Positions 54,884 to 64,000 of a DNA stretch of 64,000 nucleotides are shown in pieces (position 1 is the stretch's first letter; each line of letters begins with the position of its first letter). This stretch comes from Christensenellales bacterium (GTDB lineage: Bacteria; Bacillota; Clostridia; Christensenellales; UBA1431): contig JAXGXY010000001.1 in NCBI GenBank assembly GCA_040772545.1, positions 4,993-68,992 of the forward strand. The letters run 5' to 3'. The notes under the pieces were generated by a model. That model saw nothing but the letters and a program-made list of their open reading frames with translations. It did not search any database and was not told the DNA's origin. Made by a program: the position numbers and the translations under genes.

Positions 54884-55186
54884 ATGGCCTACACGGTAGC
54901 GTCTTCGGACGCTTTTTCTTATGGCGCGGGCTCCGAGAAAGAGCGCGTACTTAAAAACTGCGCAAACCTCCTCTCGCTGACGTGGGGGGAGGTAATGGGC
55001 GACAGGACGCTCGGGCTGGACCCGCGCCTGATCGACCGCCCGGCCGAACAGGTGCGCTCGGAGCTTACCTCGTACGTCACCGGGATGCTGCAGGAGCGCG
55101 AGCCGCGGGCAGAGGTGTCCGACGTCCTGATAGAGACCTCTGCAACGGGAGAGATGGAAGTAAAGGTGGTGCTGGAGGTTGCGTGA
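54884..55186 (+). CDS. baseplate wedge protein gp25/gpW-like
   Basis: 100 aa, upstream of the J-like gene. Contains the GEVMGDRTLGLD pattern. Confidence 0.55.
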   Translation: MAYTVASSDAFSYGAGSEKERVLKNCANLLSLTWGEVMGDRTLGLDPRLIDRPAEQVRSELTSYVTGMLQEREPRAEVSDVLIETSATGEMEVKVVLEVA

Positions 55187-56273
55187 TTTCCTCGAAACGG
55201 ACGCGGAAAAGCTGCAGGAGGACGCCGTCAGGGAGTTCGAAGCCGCTGCAGGGGAAGCACTTTACGCGGGCGACGAGCGGCGAATCCTCATCAATACGAT
55301 GGCGGGGCTGGCCGCGGTGGCGCTCGGCCACCTGAACAGGCTCCTGAACATGGACTTTCCGCAGCACGCCGAAGGCGAATACCTCGACGAACTCGGGGCC
55401 GCAAGGGGCGTCGAGCGGATGCAGGCGCAGTACGCCGCCGTGACGCTGGAATATACGCTGAGCGCGGCGCAGGCTTCGGACGTCACGATACCCGCGGGCA
55501 CGCGCGCCACGCCCGACGGAATGTGTTTCTTCGCGACGGTCCGGGACCTCGTGATCCCGGTAGGGGAGCTTTCCGATACCGTTACCGCGGAAGCTACTGT
55601 CGCGGGCAGCGCGTTCAACGGGTTCGATATCGGGACGATCAGCCAACAGGTGGACCTGGTGCCGTTCGTGGCGTCGGTGAGCAATACGGACGCGTCCCAG
55701 GGCGGCGCGGAGACGGAGGACGACGAATCGTACCGCAAGCGCATAACGCTCTCTCTTGCATCCTACAGCGCGGCGGGGTCCGAGCTGTCGTACATCTACT
55801 GGACGCATTCGGCCGACAGCACGATCGCCGACGTGGCGGTGCACAGCCCGCAGGCAGGCGAGGTCGTCGTCACTGTCTTGCTCGAAGACGGGCAGGCGCC
55901 CGGGCAGGCCGTCCTCGACCGCGTCGAAGACATGCTCTCGGCGCGCAGCGTGCGGCCCCTGACCGACCAGGTGACGGTGCAGGCGCCTGTGGAAGTGCCA
56001 TACACCATTGATGCCACGTACTACATCGACAGCGCCGCGCAGGCCGAGGAAGCGGATATCCGGCAGGCTGTCGAAGCCGCCGTCGACGAGTACGTGTCCT
56101 GGCAGAGAGCTGTGCTTGGCCGGCACCTCAACCCGGACGCACTGGTCCAGCGGATGCTCAACGCCGGCGCGTCCCGGGTCGTGGTCGCAGCGCCTGTTTT
56201 CGCTGAACTCGGCCCGGACGAGCTGGCGGTGTTGTCCGGAGATGCGTCGGTCACATACGGAGGGCTGGTGTAA
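55179..56273 (+). CDS. baseplate J-like protein
   Basis: 364 aa. Order and size fit the gp47/gpJ family. Confidence 0.6.
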   Translation: MRDFLETDAEKLQEDAVREFEAAAGEALYAGDERRILINTMAGLAAVALGHLNRLLNMDFPQHAEGEYLDELGAARGVERMQAQYAAVTLEYTLSAAQASDVTIPAGTRATPDGMCFFATVRDLVIPVGELSDTVTAEATVAGSAFNGFDIGTISQQVDLVPFVASVSNTDASQGGAETEDDESYRKRITLSLASYSAAGSELSYIYWTHSADSTIADVAVHSPQAGEVVVTVLLEDGQAPGQAVLDRVEDMLSARSVRPLTDQVTVQAPVEVPYTIDATYYIDSAAQAEEADIRQAVEAAVDEYVSWQRAVLGRHLNPDALVQRMLNAGASRVVVAAPVFAELGPDELAVLSGDASVTYGGLV

Positions 56274-56833
56274 TGACAATCTCGGAGGTCTCTTTCCTGG
56301 ACATGGTCCCCCGGCTGTTCCGCGGGGACCGCACGGTGCGGGGGACAGCCGCCGCCTGCGACACGCTGCTGCGGACGCTTCTCTCGAAGGGGGCGATGCT
56401 GCCGCTCTGGACGCGGATCGATGAGCAGCCGGAATACATACTGGACGAGATGGCCGCGGCGCTGAACCTTCTCTGGTATGACCGCGGCGCGACCCTTGCA
56501 CAGAAACGTGCCATAGTAAGCAGCGCGGAGAAGGTGTACCGCCAGCTGGGCACGCCGGCGGCCGTGCGGCAGGTGGCGGAGGACTACTTCGGGCCCGCTG
56601 CGGTGGAGGAATGGTGGGAATACGGCGGGGATCCGGGGCATTTCCGCATCAGAATACAGGCGCAGAGCCTGACGCAGGACCAGATCGACATGTTCACGAA
56701 AAAGGTCCGGTGGGTAAAACGCGCGTCCGCATGGCTTGATTCGATCACCGCGGAGGAGCCGCTTATGACCACGCTGCGCGCGGGCGGCGCCTACCACGAA
56801 GCAGGAACGGACAATCTTAGGGAAGGAGCCTGA
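56273..56833 (+). CDS. tail protein I-like (baseplate)
   Basis: 186 aa. The LDEMAAALNLLWYD pattern is typical of P2 gpI-like proteins. Confidence 0.55.
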   Translation: MTISEVSFLDMVPRLFRGDRTVRGTAAACDTLLRTLLSKGAMLPLWTRIDEQPEYILDEMAAALNLLWYDRGATLAQKRAIVSSAEKVYRQLGTPAAVRQVAEDYFGPAAVEEWWEYGGDPGHFRIRIQAQSLTQDQIDMFTKKVRWVKRASAWLDSITAEEPLMTTLRAGGAYHEAGTDNLREGA

Positions 56834-56836
56834 TCC

Positions 56837-57553
56837 ATGGCTACATTCGGACAGCTGACAATCACGAACGCAGGGCTTGCGCTGTTGGCCAAGGCACAGA
56901 CCGGGACGGCGGTGCAGTTCACGCGACTGGCCATAGGCGACGGGGAACCGGGGGCAACGGACCCCGCCACGCTCACGGCGCTGGTGAACCGCCTGCAGTG
57001 GGTGACGATCAGCTCGATCACCCGGGACGGGACGAACGTGACGGCCGCCGGGACGTTCAACAACCAGGGCGCGACAGAATCCTTTTACTTCCGCGAGATC
57101 GGGTTGTTTGCTCAGGATCCGCAGGAAGGCGAAATCCTCTACGCGTACGGCAACGCAGGGGAGACGGCCGACGAGATCCCTGCCGAGGGCAGCCAGGTCA
57201 TCGAGCGCACGGTCAGCATCACGACGGTGCTATCGACGGAGATCGCGCTGACTGTGGAACTGGTTTCCGGAGCGTACCTTCTGGCATCCGAGTACACGGC
57301 CGGGGATATTCTTGAAAAGCTCAAAACGGTGGACGGGAACGGCAGCGGCCTGGATGCGGATATGTTGGAAGGCTGTCACGGCGCGGATACCGGGAGCGCG
57401 AACAAGCACGTCGTGCTGTCGACGCCTGACGGAACGGTAAAGGTGTACAAGCTGCAGGTAGGCGGCTCGACAGTAATTCCACGTATCTATGTACAGACAA
57501 CGAACCCGGGTTCGGTACCTGAAGGCTCTCTCTGGATCAAACCGAAGGCGTAA
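56837..57553 (+). CDS. tail-collar/tail fibre protein
   Basis: The N-terminus ITNAGLALLAKAQTGTAVQFTRLAIGDGE is typical of the tail-collar fibre N-domain (DUF3751-like). Confidence 0.6.
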   Translation: MATFGQLTITNAGLALLAKAQTGTAVQFTRLAIGDGEPGATDPATLTALVNRLQWVTISSITRDGTNVTAAGTFNNQGATESFYFREIGLFAQDPQEGEILYAYGNAGETADEIPAEGSQVIERTVSITTVLSTEIALTVELVSGAYLLASEYTAGDILEKLKTVDGNGSGLDADMLEGCHGADTGSANKHVVLSTPDGTVKVYKLQVGGSTVIPRIYVQTTNPGSVPEGSLWIKPKA

Positions 57554-57566
57554 GGGGGTGTAACCT

Positions 57567-58979
57567 GTGGCGGACCTTGCCGGCACCTATGCCGCATTGA
57601 CGTCCCCGAGCGGCGCGACGTACATGGCGCTGAACTACACGCTGATTTCCCGCTCCCGTATCCGCGTCTACGGCAATATCCACCTGGGGAGCGCGACGTC
57701 ATGCGGTACGGCCGAGGAACGTACGATGCGGATTGTCATTAACGGAACAACTAAGAACTATGTTGTAAAACCGACCGGGACGAACTGGGGACCGAACTCC
57801 AACCATCCGTTTGATTACACGTTCGACTTCAACGATGCCACATCAGGCACGGAACCGGCCAGGGTTTATGTGCTGGCCACCGAGACGTACCACAGCAGCC
57901 CGAGCGTGACGTTTGATACAGGGAGCCGCACTATAACCGTTCCTTCGAGTATGCTTAGACCCGGACAGGGTTCCCAGCCTTCGGTCAGCCCGTCGAGTTA
58001 CCCTGAAGACGATATCACGATCTCCTGGGCCGCGACGCCCTATGCCACAGCGTACTACGTGGACTATTACGACGGCTCCTGGCACAGGCTCAGGGCGACG
58101 TCTGCGCGGTCAATATCAGCTTCCCTTGCGGCGATAGCTTCCCGCGGAGAGACGATCGGGTTTGCAATCAACCCGTACAACAGCTACGGCAGCGGGGGCA
58201 GGTCGCCTACAAGGTACGTCACGCGGAACCGGGCGCCCAACAAACTGGCGACCGCGCCGACGCCCAACCACACGCTGATAGAGCCTGGGACAACCATACG
58301 GCTGTCCTTCAATAACGCAGGTGACCCGGACGGCAACCTTGCCGGGTACGAGGCGGCCATGAAAGACGCCGCCGGGGAGTGGCACAAAAACGGGAAGATC
58401 GTTGGAAGCCGGTCAGGTTCCAGTATCACGTACCTGGATGTCGACACAACCGGCTGGATACGGGGAAATCGGTGGCGGTTCTATGTGCGCGGGTACGACA
58501 GCAGAGGGATCAGGGGGTCCTGGAGCTCAGCGTCCGCATATGTGAAAATCAACAGCGCACCGCCGGCGCCCTCGTCAATCACGGTCAGCCCCTCGCCGTT
58601 CGAGAAATCGCTGACGGTATCATGGCCGTCCGTGACGGACCCTGACGGGAACCTTGATTACTATCAACTGCAACGGCGGATCGCCAACGACGGCGTTAAC
58701 TGGGGCGACTGGGCGACCGTGCGCACGCAGACATCAAGGTCATGGACGGAGGAACCGCCGGTGAACGACGGCGGGCTGGTGCAGTACCGCGTGCGTGCTG
58801 TCGACAAGCTTGACCAGGTATCGTCGTACAAGACGTCCGCGCAGGTAAAGCGCGAGGACGGTTCCGGGCTGAAGGTCCGGCAGGGCGGGGCGTGGGTGAA
58901 GACAGACATTTTCGTGGGGGGCGTGAAACACGAAGTGTTTGTCAGACAGGGGGGTGGATGGGTCGAAGCAGAGAAATAA
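57567..58979 (+). CDS. distal tail fibre / receptor-binding protein with FN3-like repeats
   Basis: 470 aa with a GTG start. Repeated ~90-aa segments contain W...Y..Y/YRVRA patterns. Confidence 0.5.
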   Translation: MADLAGTYAALTSPSGATYMALNYTLISRSRIRVYGNIHLGSATSCGTAEERTMRIVINGTTKNYVVKPTGTNWGPNSNHPFDYTFDFNDATSGTEPARVYVLATETYHSSPSVTFDTGSRTITVPSSMLRPGQGSQPSVSPSSYPEDDITISWAATPYATAYYVDYYDGSWHRLRATSARSISASLAAIASRGETIGFAINPYNSYGSGGRSPTRYVTRNRAPNKLATAPTPNHTLIEPGTTIRLSFNNAGDPDGNLAGYEAAMKDAAGEWHKNGKIVGSRSGSSITYLDVDTTGWIRGNRWRFYVRGYDSRGIRGSWSSASAYVKINSAPPAPSSITVSPSPFEKSLTVSWPSVTDPDGNLDYYQLQRRIANDGVNWGDWATVRTQTSRSWTEEPPVNDGGLVQYRVRAVDKLDQVSSYKTSAQVKREDGSGLKVRQGGAWVKTDIFVGGVKHEVFVRQGGGWVEAEK

Positions 58980-59033: not shown

Positions 59034-59174
59034 ATGGCACCAACTATCGTTGATCTGAAACTGAGCTTCAGGGGCGCGCTGGTGAAGCGCGCGGCTACGC
59101 AGATGATCGTGCTGCACCATCTGGCCGGCAACGCCTCTGTGAAAGCCGTCCATGCGTACCATCTGGAACGATAG
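59034..59174 (+). pseudogene. 5' fragment (46 codons) of an N-acetylmuramoyl-L-alanine amidase (Amidase_2) endolysin
   Basis: SD AAAGGAGAGGGAG precedes the ATG. MAPTIVDLKLSFRGALVKRAATQMIVLHHLAGNASVKAVHAYHLER* matches amidase_2 N-termini up to the H..H..(R)GW.GIGYH block. It then hits TAG exactly where the composition changes. Confidence 0.75.
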
Positions 59175-59213
59175 GCTCACCTCGATGTCTGGTCTGTATT
59201 TTCCGTTTTGCTC

Positions 59214-59304
59214 GTTCGCGGGAATAGGTCAATAGTGGATTTAATGGGTACTATCGGTTCGCGGGAACAGTTCAACAGTTGTTATCCGTTCGCGGGAATA
59301 AGTC
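59214..59304 (+). repeat. three direct 17-bp repeats GTTCGCGGGAAYAGKTC at the island's left junction
   Basis: Copies at 59214-59230, 59257-59273 and 59288-59304. Each contains a TTC-N4-GAA dyad, and flanking bases are partly conserved (T..GTTCGCGGGAA.A..TCAA.AG). Confidence 0.8.
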
Positions 59305-59337
59305 GAGATATGGTTAAAAATACCTCAAAGCTTGGAT

Positions 59338-60672
59338 TCATAGGATCTTATTTTGTGCAAATGATTTTAACAAGTCAGCACTTGGATGATCTGCAAGAGA
59401 AACCAGTTTATTTGCTAAAACAATTGGCACAAGTGAGTTGTAATATAAATCACATTTTAATGCTGTAATATTGGACAGAATTACATGAATATTGATATAA
59501 TTTTCCATTTGCGGTTCTGCCAGTGCTTGGGTATTAGGGATTGTTGCTACATACACATTGCTATGTTCAGATTTAAAAATAAGCTTATGGCCATAATAGG
59601 AAGAGCTTGCATATGGTTCGTTGTTTCTCGCTTGTCCAGGAATAATATATTTGTAAATATATCTGTTCCCAAGTAACAAGATTTGTTTCGGGATCATTTT
59701 TTTCGACACTTGCTCAGCATGCTCAACAAACGAACCACCCTTTTCGAGACCAACAATATATATGGTATGATATCTATTCAAATAAGTGATTAGCTTTCGC
59801 ATAGGTTTGTGAATATTCGCAGTTTGACCAAAGAAGGCAAGTGGCCCGTCTTTTATAAATAAAGTCTCGGACAAAAGGCTTGGTTTTATAGAAAGCATTT
59901 GTTTTATTAGAAAAACAGCTATAATTTGCTCTACTGTTGTCGATAGGTAGCCTAGGATTCCTCCGGCACCAAGCTCATTATCAATAGCTTCATGAAGACG
60001 AAATATGTCGGTGAGATATATCTTTCCACTGCAATGCGGACATGTGATAGTGTATGTAGATGAAAGGTCTTTTGCCCGAATATCAACCCCTTCGTTGCAA
60101 GAAGGACAAGTTGCTAAATGCCAAATAACATTTTGAGATGAAGAATTGTACTCTTCAAAAATGAGCCACTTCAATGCATCAATAAACCCATTACGTTCTG
60201 GTTGGGTACAGAAGAAGTCATAAATGGATTTTCTAACCGAACTAATAAGATCAGCTTCACCGTCAAGAGTAATACCCTTCGTTGGTACAACCAACTTAAT
60301 CCGCTGAATGTTTTGAAGCTTTGAGAAATCGTCAGGGTCAATAAAGGGCTTGATTTTTAAATCAATTAAATCTTGATGTTTAAAAAATAGCGCGCCAAAT
60401 TGGAAAAATGCAATGGTGGATGATGGGAATTCTTCCTTTACAAAAACGTTGGTATAGCCACCATCAATAGCTATAATATTTTTAATCGGATTATGAACAA
60501 CCTCTTCAAGCATATGAATTTCTATGTCAGCATCATCGACATCATCCTGATAGGGAGGGACTTTACACTTTGAAAGAAAAGATTGCACCTCGGCGTCATT
60601 GATTATATTCGTATGTGCTGTTTTACTCGCTCTTTCAAATGGTTTGTTTGAATAGTCATTTCCATAGCTCAT
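59338..60672 (-). CDS. NurA-like nuclease with an inserted zinc ribbon
   Basis: ATG 60672 lies 4 nt after the HerA stop, with AAGGAG inside the HerA 3' end. NurA-type motifs are IIAIDGGYT and LFIKDGPLAFFG, and the GLEKGGSFVEH block is present. CPSC...CPHC forms an inserted Zn ribbon. Confidence 0.65.
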   Translation of the reverse strand: MSYGNDYSNKPFERASKTAHTNIINDAEVQSFLSKCKVPPYQDDVDDADIEIHMLEEVVHNPIKNIIAIDGGYTNVFVKEEFPSSTIAFFQFGALFFKHQDLIDLKIKPFIDPDDFSKLQNIQRIKLVVPTKGITLDGEADLISSVRKSIYDFFCTQPERNGFIDALKWLIFEEYNSSSQNVIWHLATCPSCNEGVDIRAKDLSSTYTITCPHCSGKIYLTDIFRLHEAIDNELGAGGILGYLSTTVEQIIAVFLIKQMLSIKPSLLSETLFIKDGPLAFFGQTANIHKPMRKLITYLNRYHTIYIVGLEKGGSFVEHAEQVSKKMIPKQILLLGNRYIYKYIIPGQARNNEPYASSSYYGHKLIFKSEHSNVYVATIPNTQALAEPQMENYINIHVILSNITALKCDLYYNSLVPIVLANKLVSLADHPSADLLKSFAQNKIL

Positions 60673-60676
60673 ATAA

Positions 60677-62680
60677 TCAATCTCCTTGTGCAGTAAATCT
60701 GTCAACTTGTACGGGAACAATAAAAGCATTAGAGTATGTTTTCATACGAATAAATCCTTTATCACTCCCGGAACTGTATCGGATTAAACTATCACAAAAG
60801 TCCTCAAAATCGTAAAACTTTTTGATTTCCTTTAATTCATCATCATTGTTTAGATGAGCGATAAACCAGTTTTGAGTGTTCTTTAATATATTAGATGAAA
60901 TGGAACTAACTTCTTGTGTAGCATAAATAAGTCCGATATTTAATTTTGCACCTTCTTTGGCTATACGATTATATACTCGGCTCAAATCCTTATCATCCTT
61001 TTGAGGAAACAAGTTATGTGCTTCTTCAAAGTAAAACTGAATAAAGTTATTCGGGCGATTGTTAACAAAATTATCCATAGAATTTCTAAAGACGCTTAAA
61101 CAGATTTTTTCTGCAAATGTTTTTTGAATGTTAGGATCACCCTGAGATAAATCAATAATTACGATATCTCCACGTCTAAGACAGTTGACGATATCAGTTT
61201 CAAAGGATGTATCAGATTGTATAGTATGATAATCTTTCAGTGGTACCAGCTTTCTAAAACCACTTAGACTAGCAACACCAGACAAATTACGCTTTCTAGT
61301 CAAGAACACCAAAAGAGCCTTCAAATCCTCATCTACCCAGTCATGGCCTTTTTGTGAGCGATAGTTTACAAAAAACGGATCATCTTGGTTATCCGCTACC
61401 CATGTCCAAAATGCAAGTGCATCATCGAGGCTTATTCCGCTAGAAGGATCAAGTGTCTTCCCTGACATTATTTTGCTATTAATATCTCTATGTCCAGAAA
61501 ACTTAACTTTGTGATTTTTCGGAACTATAAAGCCTGCGGCCTTTAAACAGCATTGATAAACTGCTACCTTACGTGCCCACCTAGTATACGCTGAACCGAA
61601 TTTATCTTCTGGTTCTTCAAAATCAACAGAAATAAAGCTCTTAATATAATCGCCGGTTTCGTCTGCAAGTAAACTGCTTATTAATTCATACCCAACAGCA
61701 ATATCCTTAAAAAAGTTTACCTTTAATACCTTGAAACCAGGTTTATCAAGAACACTGTATCGTGTTGTAATACTTGAGTATTTTTCAAATATAGCGGTTC
61801 CTTCATCTTGTAAATTCGCATTTGCGTATTCACCATTCATGTCAAAGATAATCTGCCCGACTTTATATTTTGGAATTCCTTCATCATTAAATTGCTTGAC
61901 ATTATCAATAGGAGAGGTTGTTGATGCATTAGTACATATCTCTTTAGCTTTATTGCTTATTTCTGTTGTAGCTTCAATAATCTTCTTTACAGTATTTGAT
62001 TTACCGGTTCTTGTCATTCCAAAAAGAGCTGTCCGCTTTCCAAGAAAGTCGCTGGGACTAACATAAACGGGGACATCTGTGTGTGCTTCTTGAAAACGAC
62101 GGCTTGAACTGTACCTTATCTTACCGATTCGATAATCAGTTGTACTTCCAACAGATGTATTTCCATCTCTAAAATTAACTATTTGTTCCAGTATTTCTCC
62201 TACTGGTTTGTAAGCAACATAATTATGCGCGCTATAGTAGTTTTCAACATCAGCTCCGAATTGAATTTTTCCATTGCTATCACGGAAAAATGTTCCCAAA
62301 ATACGGCATTCAAGTCCTGAGAAGCTGAATGTGTATTTTGTAAAGTCATCAAGTTGACTTTTTTTGCCCGATGTCTTCAAGTTGTCCTTATAGTACTCTA
62401 CCATAGAAGCAATAACATCGTTATCAGTTGGTAGTTTCGCTGGCTTAATTGCTCTTAGCAAAAGACATTCATCAACATCATCATTTTCGTTTTCATAGAA
62501 AGCAAGAATAAAGGTACCTTGAGGAATACCGCCTACCCTTTCTTTCCACGCGTCTGTTATCAGCAGATATGCTTTATCAAAATCGAGGTAAAATGGTCTT
62601 CCGACGAACAAATCGGGCTTTTTAGCTTCTTTAAAAATATCTACTATTGCCAGGTTTTGTACTTCTTGCATCAGTCCCAT
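60677..62680 (-). CDS. HerA/DUF87-type (FtsK-HerA superfamily) ATPase
   Basis: 667 aa. Walker A LFGMTRTGKSNT (aa 219-230), Walker B-like FYFEEAHNLFP, and the later blocks GLIYATQEVSSIS and NWFIAHLNN are typical of the DUF87/HerA core. Confidence 0.75.
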   Translation of the reverse strand: MGLMQEVQNLAIVDIFKEAKKPDLFVGRPFYLDFDKAYLLITDAWKERVGGIPQGTFILAFYENENDDVDECLLLRAIKPAKLPTDNDVIASMVEYYKDNLKTSGKKSQLDDFTKYTFSFSGLECRILGTFFRDSNGKIQFGADVENYYSAHNYVAYKPVGEILEQIVNFRDGNTSVGSTTDYRIGKIRYSSSRRFQEAHTDVPVYVSPSDFLGKRTALFGMTRTGKSNTVKKIIEATTEISNKAKEICTNASTTSPIDNVKQFNDEGIPKYKVGQIIFDMNGEYANANLQDEGTAIFEKYSSITTRYSVLDKPGFKVLKVNFFKDIAVGYELISSLLADETGDYIKSFISVDFEEPEDKFGSAYTRWARKVAVYQCCLKAAGFIVPKNHKVKFSGHRDINSKIMSGKTLDPSSGISLDDALAFWTWVADNQDDPFFVNYRSQKGHDWVDEDLKALLVFLTRKRNLSGVASLSGFRKLVPLKDYHTIQSDTSFETDIVNCLRRGDIVIIDLSQGDPNIQKTFAEKICLSVFRNSMDNFVNNRPNNFIQFYFEEAHNLFPQKDDKDLSRVYNRIAKEGAKLNIGLIYATQEVSSISSNILKNTQNWFIAHLNNDDELKEIKKFYDFEDFCDSLIRYSSGSDKGFIRMKTYSNAFIVPVQVDRFTAQGD

Positions 62681-62685
62681 ATTTA

Positions 62686-63693
62686 TTATTCCTCCGTTTT
62701 TATTTTTGCTTTTAATGAAGGCTCCTCAAAACGAATCATAGACTGCTTTCCGTAATCTTCGTTAGCCTCAATGCTAATCCATTTGCGTTTTGCTCTTTCG
62801 GCACAAAATCCGGTTGTGTTGCTTCCTCCAAATGGGTCAAGAACAATATCGCCTTCATCTGTAAGAAATTCAATAAAAAAACTCGCTAATTCAAGAGGCA
62901 TTCGTGCAGGATGCGGTGTTATTCCACGTTGCTTACATGTTTTTGTAAAAAAATCATTTGATTTGGTGTTTGAAATACTAAACATTGAATATGGAAGGCG
63001 TAATTCTTTATTTTCATCAATTTGTTCCAATTCTAGTACATTGTGCGATATACTTCCTTTGTTATCAGATAAAAATCCTTTTTCACTAATAACATGTTCA
63101 GACGGCCGCTTCCCAGAATTGAATTTTCCAGATTTCAAAAGCCGCTTCATGCTCTTGCTATACGGTCGTAAAACTCTGCGGTTATCTGCTTTGGGAAAAT
63201 CAGAATTTGCCATCCACCAAATGTGAGTAAAGCTGTCAATTGCACGTATTCGATTAATCGTAACCCATTGAGCAGGTGATGGTAACCTTGCTGGATTATA
63301 GCAAACAAATTCTTGACATAATCTCAAGCCAGCTCGTTCGTTATTAACGAAACTTAAAAGAGAATTAATAGTAAGAAGTGACTGCACAGGCCGGTTCTTT
63401 TCCCATGCATTCCCCATTTCTATTACAATCGATCCATCTGGAGTCAGCACACTGGATAATATTTCCGCGAGCCCGCTAAACCATTGCAAATAATCATCAC
63501 CAGTTAAATTTCCGTATTGCTTTTTATTGTTTAGAGGAAATGGGGGAGATGTCAAGATAAGCTGTACTTTACCTTTAAGGTTCAGACGGCCTATTGTTTC
63601 TTCGCATTTTCCTATGTAATATTTCCCGTAATCAGTGCTATAAAGCTGATTATACATACGCATCCATCCTTTACTGTTATCGTTTTTCCGCAA
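62686..63693 (-). CDS. beta-class N4-cytosine/N6-adenine DNA methyltransferase (SPPF catalytic motif)
   Basis: Motif IV LILTSPPFP is N-terminal and motif I VLDPFGGSNTTG is C-terminal, which is the beta permutation. SPPF favours m4C. The maximal ORF starts at TTG 63693; ATG 63663 or 63657 are likelier starts. Confidence 0.85.
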   Translation of the reverse strand: MRKNDNSKGWMRMYNQLYSTDYGKYYIGKCEETIGRLNLKGKVQLILTSPPFPLNNKKQYGNLTGDDYLQWFSGLAEILSSVLTPDGSIVIEMGNAWEKNRPVQSLLTINSLLSFVNNERAGLRLCQEFVCYNPARLPSPAQWVTINRIRAIDSFTHIWWMANSDFPKADNRRVLRPYSKSMKRLLKSGKFNSGKRPSEHVISEKGFLSDNKGSISHNVLELEQIDENKELRLPYSMFSISNTKSNDFFTKTCKQRGITPHPARMPLELASFFIEFLTDEGDIVLDPFGGSNTTGFCAERAKRKWISIEANEDYGKQSMIRFEEPSLKAKIKTEE

Positions 63694-63719: not shown

Positions 63720-63743
63720 AAACTCGCACATTGGTGCGAGTTT
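63720..63743 (-). terminator. hairpin between the edge gene and the methyltransferase operon
   Basis: 10-bp stem AAACTCGCAC/GTGCGAGTTT with a 4-nt loop. On the minus strand it is followed by TAGGTGTTTAG, a weak U tract. Confidence 0.4.
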
Positions 63744-63751
63744 AGCATGTG

Positions 63752-64000
63752 TCAATCTAACAGCGAACCTTGCGGAGCAAGTGAGTTCGGCTTAAGAATA
63801 TGTGATTTCATTATTTGGCTTCCAGCATACATCTTGTATTCGATGCCGCTATGAACTGCCATGATAGTTGCGGCTTCCGCTTTTGCTTTTACGACTGCAT
63901 CGTCTATTTTATCGTCGCCCTTTACCTCAATAAGCTGATATGAGCCGTCAGCCATCTCTGCAAAGAAGTCGGGGTAGTAGAGGCGGATGCGCCGTGACTC
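63752..64000 (-). CDS. C-terminal PD-(D/E)xK nuclease domain of a larger protein (gene runs off the right edge)
   Basis: The frame stays open upstream of the listed Met to base 64000: ...ESRRIRLYYPDFFAEMADGSYQLIEVKGDDKIDDAVVKAKAEAA... The YxPDF...EVKG pattern is seen at the C-termini of Res-type helicase-nucleases and in TnsA-like endonucleases. Confidence 0.55.
   Translation of the reverse strand, partial: ESRRIRLYYPDFFAEMADGSYQLIEVKGDDKIDDAVVKAKAEAATIMAVHSGIEYKMYAGSQIMKSHILKPNSLAPQGSLLD

Follow-up and report, generated by a model that had tools for sequence, protein, structure and literature searches.

The 64,000-nucleotide (nt) stretch of contig JAXGXY010000001.1 from a Christensenellales bacterium that was analyzed here (hereafter, the window) carries a compact, 4.3-kb trio of minus-strand genes encoding a DNA methyltransferase (MTase; 62686-63657, 323 amino acids from the likely ATG start), a HerA-like ATPase (60677-62680, 667 amino acids), and a NurA-like nuclease (59338-60672, 444 amino acids, with the ATG at 60672). 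Reading of the sequence placed the MTase stop codon (TAA, 62688-62686) 5 nt from the herA ATG (62680) and the herA stop codon (TGA, 60679-60677) 4 nt from the ATG of the NurA-like gene, and the Shine-Dalgarno sites of the two downstream genes, GGAGG (62695-62691, minus strand) and AAGGAG (60687-60682, minus strand), were located within the final codons of the MTase and herA genes, respectively. The ORF (open reading frame) calls agreed with this arrangement, so that the gene order, the short gaps, and the internal ribosome-binding sites described in an original prediction made from the window sequence were all confirmed. The operon span given there, 59338-63693, corresponds to a real ORF at its upstream end, but position 63693 is reached only by extension of the MTase gene to a TTG codon; translation probably begins at the ATG at 63657, a start supported by the 323-amino acid length called on independent contigs. 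The AT-rich, foreign composition that had been noted was also verified, since the G+C content of the trio is 36.2% versus 59.5% for the remaining window. The trio consists of real genes, because the identical HerA protein is recorded in 157 collection blocks and the NurA-like family comprises more than 2,100 clusters at 90% identity; the HerA family, counted in the same way, comprises more than 3,400.

The sequence of the first gene product identifies it as a PvuII-like DNA N4-cytosine MTase of the beta class. Its TSPPF motif (residues 36-40, nt 63538-63552) lies upstream of DPFGGSNTTG (residues 274-283, nt 62809-62838), and this order, with motif IV (SPPF) ahead of motif I (FxGxG), is that of the beta class. 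The protein matched the Pfam family N6_N4_Mtase (PF01555) with an E value of 3.4e-32 and the PADLOC model MTase_II (PDLC03323) with 7.3e-81, and its best match in PDB was M.PvuII (1BOO, E = 3.9e-68), to which it aligned end to end with about 48% identity. The SPPF and FxGxG motifs were invariant across 52 orthologues. Because the MTase, including its central target-recognition region, is the best conserved member of the trio across phyla, its sequence points to a specificity that is probably common to the whole family and that might possibly be CAGCTG-like. PvuII sites (CAGCTG) were counted in 4.8 kb and none was found, an uninformative count given that a rough base-composition estimate predicts about 0.6.

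The second gene codes for a HerA/FtsK-class ring ATPase, as judged from sequence profiles and a structural model. The Walker A motif GMTRTGKS (residues 221-228, nt 61997-62020), the Walker B motif FYFEEAH (residues 549-555, nt 61016-61036), and the sensor glutamine motif ATQEVS (residues 587-592, nt 60905-60922) were found in the protein, and Walker A, Walker B, and the ATQE sensor were invariant across 64 orthologues. The two Walker motifs are about 325 amino acids apart and flank a mostly helical, poorly conserved region at approximately residues 330-480. Profile searches gave matches to Pfam DUF87 (E = 9.9e-14) and to the HerA models of PADLOC (best, 7.6e-22), and the best PDB match by sequence was TdpA (8wet_A, 5.8e-16). 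When the AlphaFold2 (AF2) monomer (pLDDT 69) was compared with PDB by Foldseek, the top six matches were all TdpA chains (E values from 2.5e-20 to 1.1e-17), and the model also fitted HerA hexamer structures with E values of 1e-12 or lower.

For the third protein, the Pfam NurA profile gave only a weak match with the single window sequence (E = 0.009, below the gathering score), but it recognized 16 of 41 diverse members of the family (best, 5.8e-6). The family profile retrieved nothing significant among PDB sequences, TdpB appearing only at an E value of 1.7, and a comparison of folds was therefore needed. An AF2 model built from 73 sequences (pLDDT 80.2, pTM 0.81) matched TdpB (8wfd_G) first in Foldseek (E = 1.2e-8, probability 1.0), followed by the NurA structures 3taz, 2ygk, 9x1n_G, 3tai, and 1zup; the NurA proteins matched come from Pyrococcus, Sulfolobus, Thermococcus, and Thermotoga. 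The IAIDGG (residues 67-72) and IKDGPL (residues 273-278) motifs are separated by an inserted zinc ribbon, CPSC (189-192)...CPHC (211-214), encoded at nt 60031-60108, and the conserved acidic/histidine set consists of D70, D222, H227, D275, K311, and H318. Residues D70, D275, and H318, together with C189, C211, and C214, were invariant down to 26% identity, and the fourth cysteine of the ribbon, C192, was at least 90% conserved among closer relatives. The model and the family matches indicate that the third gene product is a nuclease of the NurA (RNase H-like) fold with a zinc-ribbon insert, and no match to it was obtained in PADLOC, NCBIfam, or PHROGs. Taken as a whole, these analyses located every motif named in the original prediction at the expected residues and upheld its three assignments, i.e. 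a beta-permuted amino-methyltransferase, a DUF87/HerA P-loop protein, and a NurA-type nuclease interrupted by a zinc ribbon.

When species were scanned at one genome each, 155 relatives of the nuclease came to light. Of their loci, 80 were fetched, and the 73 with sufficient upstream DNA were considered informative; gene content was determined by ORF-level phmmer. A same-strand MTase-HerA-NurA order was present in 63 of the 73 informative loci (86% MTase-linked). All three proteins were full length in 51 loci, where the median gaps were 2 and 3 nt, the mean identities to the window proteins were 68%, 65%, and 56% for MTase, HerA, and NurA, respectively, and these identities were correlated with r values of 0.95-0.97. 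The conserved order, the tight gaps, and this co-divergence lead us to conclude, from sequence comparison, that the trio is inherited as a unit. Its hosts belong to at least 18 phyla of Bacteria and archaea, with loci from Bacillota, Bacteroidota, Ignavibacteriota, Cyanobacteria and Melainabacteria, Chloroflexota, Deinococcota, Actinomycetota, Synergistota, Planctomycetota, Verrucomicrobiota, Omnitrophota, Bipolaricaulota, Thermotogota, Pseudomonadota, 'Deltaproteobacteria', Campylobacterota, several phyla of the Candidate Phyla Radiation (CPR), and the archaeal Methanosarcinales and Methanotrichaceae. Co-occurrence of the three genes in other genomes, which had been proposed beforehand as a test of the system, was thus clearly observed. 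Close relatives are available in culturable hosts, such as Acutalibacter muris, Alicyclobacillus tolerans, Pedobacter alluvionis, Ruegeria atlantica, and on Nostoc plasmids.

In relatives of 24-33% identity the three functions are kept, with a shuffled gene order and a different class of MTase. The pDF308 megaplasmid of Deferribacter desulfuricans (locus L091, 3126-6924) harbors a distant MTase-HerA-NurA trio whose herA gene is split by an IS200/IS605 insertion (tnpA and a gene of the TnpB family), with the genes for the MTase and NurA left intact, and a Halorarius plasmid carries a distant version in the order HerA-NurA-MTase. In Salirhabdus, D12 and N4/N6 MTases are located downstream, on the other side of HerA-NurA. 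In the temperate Vibrio phage 10N.286.54.E5_PE002 (locus L093, 1-5751), the interval between integrase and excisionase holds two ORFs that together make up a split HerA, then a NurA-like gene and, in convergent orientation, a Dam-like D12 MTase. The latter locus is a second, independent case of carriage by a prophage. Non-orthologous MTases thus replace one another beside HerA-NurA, and this replacement provides the strongest argument that a DNA MTase is functionally required. Decayed loci were also found: in one (L030) a deletion has joined residues 1-200 of the MTase to residues 120-444 of NurA, and another (L082) retains a truncated HerA and no MTase. Where the MTase is intact, the member of the trio most frequently found split is herA, which would fit the decay of a restriction-modification (R-M) system, but this signal is weak because herA is also the longest gene.

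The module was found on plasmids, in prophages, and on transposon-like islands, and the genes flanking it are mostly of defense (restriction, Abi, CBASS) and mobile-element type. The Pfam families encountered most often in the 206 flanking ORFs were ResIII (14), N6_N4_Mtase (8), DEAD/Helicase_C, GmrSD_N (4), and RE_endonuc (4), and PDDEXK_1, AbiEii, PLDc_2, and recombinases were also common; only a minority of the loci have UvrD, Mod, and Res genes alongside the trio. In Nostoc sp. ATCC 43529 (locus L032, 8268-10397), a CBASS pair, consisting of a DncV-like CD-NTase and a SAVED-domain effector, directly follows a HerA-NurA pair that has no MTase. Siting in defense islands is supported as far as raw counts of neighbors go.

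In the window, phage baseplate, tail, and tail-fiber genes (55179-58979) are followed by the first 46 codons of a phage amidase/endolysin gene (phrog_35436; 59034-59174, plus strand), which is cut at the start of an AT-rich island. The segment 59164-64000 was 99.3-99.7% identical by blastn to independent metagenomic contigs (L002-L010), and homology to all copies, including one of 87% identity (L011), ends at 59164. Because homology stops at this position, inside an amidase gene cut to 46 codons, the comparison indicates that the trio is the end cargo of a mobile island of 37% G+C inserted into the lysis (endolysin) gene of a 60% G+C prophage, which may as a consequence be unable to lyse; the remainder of the interrupted gene would be located outside the window. 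The suggestion that the trio is mobile defense cargo of foreign composition inside a prophage holds in this respect, but the trio is not native prophage cargo; it is the tail of a larger inserted island that leaves the window. The non-coding end of the island (59164-59337, as set by the blastn boundaries) contains three direct CGTTCGCGGGAA repeats detected by a repeat search on the plus strand (59213-59224, 59256-59267, and 59287-59298, one of them with a mismatch). This array, which lies within 135 bp of the island end at 59164 and is kept in all fetched copies including the 87%-identical one, looks like a set of candidate binding sites for a transposase or recombinase. In L004-L008, an AAA ATPase gene lies on the opposite side of the island.

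On the independent contigs the full island reads HTH_26, a GajB-like UvrD-type helicase with a PD-(D/E)xK nuclease (954 amino acids), a Mod-like N6_N4 MTase (614-669 amino acids), a ResIII-like helicase-nuclease (884 amino acids), and the trio, the full UvrD, Mod, and ResIII-like genes lying at 379-7930 of L002. Only the C terminus of the ResIII-like protein is found in the window (63752-64000, minus strand; the last 82 codons, with a PD-(D/E)xK-like YYPDF...IEVKG stretch). No PADLOC model matched the 884-amino acid protein, and together with the UvrD-nuclease and the Mod-like MTase it may form a second, atypical restriction-like system. Between its stop codon (63752) and the MTase start there is a terminator-like hairpin (63720-63743, minus strand) with a perfect 10-bp stem and a 4-nt loop, AAACUCGCAC-CAAU-GUGCGAGUUU, followed by a U-rich tract. 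Its RNA fold has an energy of -18.8 kcal/mol (z = -3.1 versus shuffles); the hairpin was absent from the hits of a consensus terminator scan, and the promoter and terminator consensus scans gave no surplus relative to shuffles. As a sequence feature, this putative terminator marks the trio off as a unit of its own. Membership of the trio MTase in the upstream Mod/Res pair was considered and rejected, as the pair owns its MTase, the hairpin lies between them, and most loci have the trio without the pair.

Among otherwise 99%-identical islands, the Mod-like MTase is 614, 641/642, or 669 amino acids long (aligned genes at L002 3267-5276, L004 4350-6275, L005 4347-6275, L008 4431-6275, and L010 3509-5353). 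The alignment contains a hypervariable central block at columns ~140-320, while the trio is unchanged among the same islands, and this pattern points to swapping of target-recognition regions in the Mod-like MTase; a tandem repeat was considered as the cause of the length variation and discarded in favor of a swapped central region. In a 23-Mb record (GCA_900198705.1; locus L001, 8866-12972), the MTase gene, the HerA gene, and the 5' two-thirds of the NurA gene are present at 99.5% identity in another neighborhood, with type I hsdM/hsdS genes and a group II intron-like reverse transcriptase. Within the NurA gene, homology to this locus breaks off at window position 59709, an indication that the copy is recombinant or rearranged.

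We consider it rather probable, from the sequence data and by analogy with characterized complexes, that the trio is a defense module in which methylation marks self DNA and an ATP-driven translocase-nuclease carries out restriction. The R-M-like character that the original prediction had put forward is backed by the fold and family assignments, the co-occurrence, and the context of the genes, although the idea itself has precedents in TdpAB and in the Thermus ICETh1 operon. According to this proposal, the PvuII-like MTase, as judged from its close homology, would place N4-methylcytosine (m4C) at one short sequence of the host DNA. On the basis of the folds and of the solved TdpAB and HerA-NurA complexes, a HerA hexamer ring would thread duplex DNA with ATP, and a dimer of the NurA-like protein would dock on the ring and cut the strands fed to it; that HerA and NurA form such a complex here is inferred from gene adjacency, coupling, and co-divergence. 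By analogy with TdpAB, unmarked DNA would be degraded processively and methylated self DNA would be spared. The phosphorothioate (PT) mark reportedly blocks both translocation and cleavage by TdpAB. Methylation might be read by the nuclease's conserved zinc ribbon, by the additional helical region in HerA, or by the MTase in the capacity of a recognition subunit. Having the MTase first in a translationally coupled operon would produce the protective enzyme first and fix the subunit ratios. More speculatively, DNA might be entered at ends or breaks, which would explain the frequent siting of the trio beside helicase-nuclease restriction systems. Archaeal HerA-NurA degrades the two strands of duplex DNA and loads at DNA ends, and the February 2026 paper on it raises a defense role as speculation only (PMC12977600).

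Several observations weigh against the proposed restriction module. Six species-level loci (five from Nostocales and one from Gemmataceae) have intact HerA and NurA genes and neither an MTase nor a remnant of one within ~4-10 kb, so that either HerA-NurA is not lethal without a linked MTase or an MTase acts in trans. It is not obvious how a ring translocase gripping the backbone could sense an N4-methyl group in the major groove, and with partner MTases of differing class (m4C-type and the N6-methyladenine (m6A)-type D12) a single fixed read-out is hard to picture. On the structural side, the AF2 monomer of HerA is of low confidence at its C terminus and the Foldseek TM-scores are modest (0.40-0.54), and enrichment in defense islands was judged on raw counts of flanking ORFs, without a background model. 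Furthermore, in the only NurA/HerA-like/PF01555-methylase operon that has been studied genetically, that of Thermus ICETh1, deletion of the methylase had a minor effect and the genes serve DNA donation (PMC5365140, PMC7767461).

A role like that of ICETh1, in which a HerA-like pump and NurA would process the breaks made by a restriction enzyme and export DNA in a 'transjugation'-like manner with the methylase as an accessory, is accordingly the first rival to be weighed. All three components, with an R-M enzyme in addition, occur in the ICETh1 operon (TthHB27I-NurA-TdtA-methylase, PF01555), where donation depends on NurA and TdtA while loss of the methylase matters little (PMC5365140; PMC7767461), and the trio in the window also follows a restriction-like helicase-nuclease on a mobile element, ResIII neighbors being frequent elsewhere. 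Nevertheless, the order and sizes of the ICETh1 genes differ (NurA of 377 amino acids upstream, MTase of 410 amino acids downstream), ~75-80% of the loci have no adjacent restriction enzyme, and no conjugation or competence genes are found among the commonest flanking families. Moreover, CPR bacteria with tiny genomes, methanogens, and a Vibrio prophage (next to the integrase) carry the trio, whose nearest solved relative is a defense complex, all of which makes a donation machine distinctly unlikely. It is unlikely, to a lesser degree, that the trio is the accessory exonuclease of a larger composite with the UvrD-nuclease, Mod-like MTase, and ResIII-like genes, acting after cleavage as RecBCD does and using its own methylation as a stop or self signal. 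The UvrD-Mod-Res-MTase-HerA-NurA order is kept from 99% to 49% NurA identity (L002-L010, L015, L047, and L059), about 13 of 70 loci, drawn from several phyla, have Mod- or Res-like genes close to the trio in varied arrangements, ResIII is the commonest flanking family, and the loading of HerA-NurA complexes at DNA ends (PMC12977600) would suit such a task. The trio stands alone in most loci, however, and is separated here from the upstream gene by the stable terminator-like hairpin; the swapping of the central region of the Mod-like MTase while the trio is unchanged suggests independent specificities, and restriction systems cluster in islands anyway.

Housekeeping DNA repair, with HerA-NurA as an end-resection pair such as that of Deinococcus and archaea next to an unrelated orphan MTase, would account for the folds, which match archaeal NurA and HerA, and for the NCBI label of the homologues, 'DNA double-strand break repair nuclease NurA'. 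It is very hard to reconcile, however, with the patchy distribution, the horizontal mobility, the foreign G+C content, and the location on plasmids, prophages, and transposon-like islands, or with an MTase that is linked in 86% of the loci and co-diverges. There is likewise no linkage to Mre11/Rad50 (Metallophos, AAA_23, and SMC_N each account for 2 of the 206 flanking ORFs), and the NCBIfam HerA repair models gave 36 bits versus a cut-off of 970, so that we regard this explanation as highly improbable. R-M systems are known to act as addiction modules, and the trio could stabilize the mobile island through post-segregational killing, phage defense being a side effect. Its position at the very end of an island that has spread at 99% identity through many metagenomes fits such a function, as does the coupled, MTase-first order. 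Addiction is compatible with defense and not exclusive of it, and the MTase-less HerA-NurA pairs of Nostocales argue against strong toxicity; as the primary role of the trio we find it quite improbable.

Returning to the methylation-marked restriction module, a broader claim, to which we give an even chance, is that a widespread form of methylation-based restriction employs a HerA ring and a NurA nuclease instead of a classical endonuclease and constitutes a distinct R-M class beside types I-IV, the same chassis having been coupled repeatedly to m4C, m6A, and PT marks. If this is true, a very common module is now misannotated (as 'ATP-binding protein', 'DUF87', or 'DSB repair nuclease NurA', alongside a type II methylase regarded as 'orphan'), many 'orphan' PvuII-like MTases would have to be reclassified, and defense finders such as PADLOC would need a new model. 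It would also imply that a processive ring motor can read base methylation in some way still unrecognized, thereby posing the question of how such a motor senses a methyl group in the major groove, and the TdpAB principle of a mark-gated translocating nuclease would extend from backbone modification in thermophiles to ordinary base methylation throughout prokaryotes. The same reading may explain the puzzling Thermus ICETh1 operon. With three genes in 4.3 kb, near-identical natural copies, and relatives in culturable hosts, the trio is directly testable.

The expectation that the trio is not a named system was largely sustained, with the reservation that TdpAB and ICETh1 are precedents. PADLOC-DB 2.0 (2023) has no model for the NurA-like nuclease, either for the window protein or for its distant relatives, NCBIfam (June 2026) has no specific model for the trio, and the source annotations name its proteins only 'ATP-binding', 'DUF87', or 'NurA', the Vibrio phage record bearing a defense-type note on its MTase only. 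The literature search found no paper describing an MTase-HerA-NurA defense system, subscription journals being largely outside that search and an earlier in silico mention being possible. Publications on the SXT/R391 HerA hotspot, on CglI, and on Dnd/HerA capture, as well as the Aravind 2012 review, proved to have no bearing on the trio. The MADS system (mad1-mad8) was considered and rejected, as the match of HerA to mad8 (6.9e-13) is at the P-loop level and weaker than that to the HerA models, and only three genes are present. SIR2-HerA (Nezha) and DUF4297-HerA share with the trio a HerA-class ATPase working with an effector in defense, as reflected in the PADLOC and PDB matches, but the trio has a NurA-like effector and a modification gene; Pfam and PADLOC profile scans revealed no SIR2 or DUF4297 domain in the operon, and its HerA scored 46 bits with the NCBIfam model 'HerA_antiphage', the cut-off of which is 800. 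The PvuII type II R-M system has an MTase ~48% identical over the full length and equal in size and motif order, but the trio is devoid of an R.PvuII-type PD-(D/E)xK endonuclease and of a C protein, and the MTase partner is instead an ATP-driven motor-nuclease pair; in agreement with this, no restriction endonuclease family of Pfam or PADLOC was matched in the operon and no cognate stand-alone endonuclease was found beside the MTase.

The HerA-NurA pairs of archaea and Deinococcus presumably share with the trio a hexameric translocase and a dimeric RNase H-like nuclease, to judge from the folds (2ygk, 3tai/3taz, 9x1n, 4d2i, and 7wrx), but the trio is mobile, MTase-linked, equipped with a zinc-ribbon insert, and without Mre11-Rad50, no mre11/rad50 neighborhood being found in the window island, and the similarity is weaker than that to TdpAB. 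The operon of Thermus thermophilus ICETh1 (TthHB27I, the NurA-like TTC1878, TdtA TTC1879, and the methylase TTC1880) resembles the trio, as far as published descriptions allow the two to be likened, in having a restriction enzyme next to co-transcribed genes, borne by a mobile element, for a NurA-like nuclease, a HerA/FtsK-class ATPase, and a PF01555 methylase; it differs in its NurA-HerA-MTase order, in the sizes of its nuclease and methylase, and in a donation role for which the methylase is nearly dispensable.

The closest counterpart is TdpABC, which PMC12914056 presents as the third PT-based R-M system, with tdpC making the mark, and which also appears as PT-based R-M in a list in PMC13223576. 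In both cases a HerA-class ring ATPase and a NurA-fold nuclease are encoded side by side as the restriction half, together with a linked self-marking gene, and TdpA and TdpB are the closest solved structures of the HerA and NurA proteins of the trio; the TdpAB structures (8wet/8wfd) come from cryo-EM (An et al., Nat Chem Biol, 2025, doi 10.1038/s41589-024-01832-w). The mark differs, being in the trio a base methylation that would be made by a PvuII-like m4C MTase, whereas TdpC places sulfur in the backbone; no linked tdpC was found, 63 of the 73 loci having a linked PF01555 MTase and the operon containing no further gene. The similarity is also remote (14-16% identity in fold alignments, with phmmer aligning HerA residues 503-659 only), the nuclease of the trio is ~70 amino acids longer and bears the zinc-ribbon insert, its HerA is ~80 amino acids longer, and TdpABC comes from thermophiles, whereas the family of the trio occurs in mesophiles, gut bacteria, CPR bacteria, and methanogens. 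Because the Tdp proteins are the best PDB matches and yet only remotely similar, sequence and model comparisons place the relationship at the superfamily level and not at that of orthology. Both the chassis (TdpAB) and the logic (modification-gated restriction) were therefore already known, but the trio itself is widespread and unannotated, and it is apparently the counterpart, based on methylation and as yet unnamed, of the sulfur-based TdpABC system.

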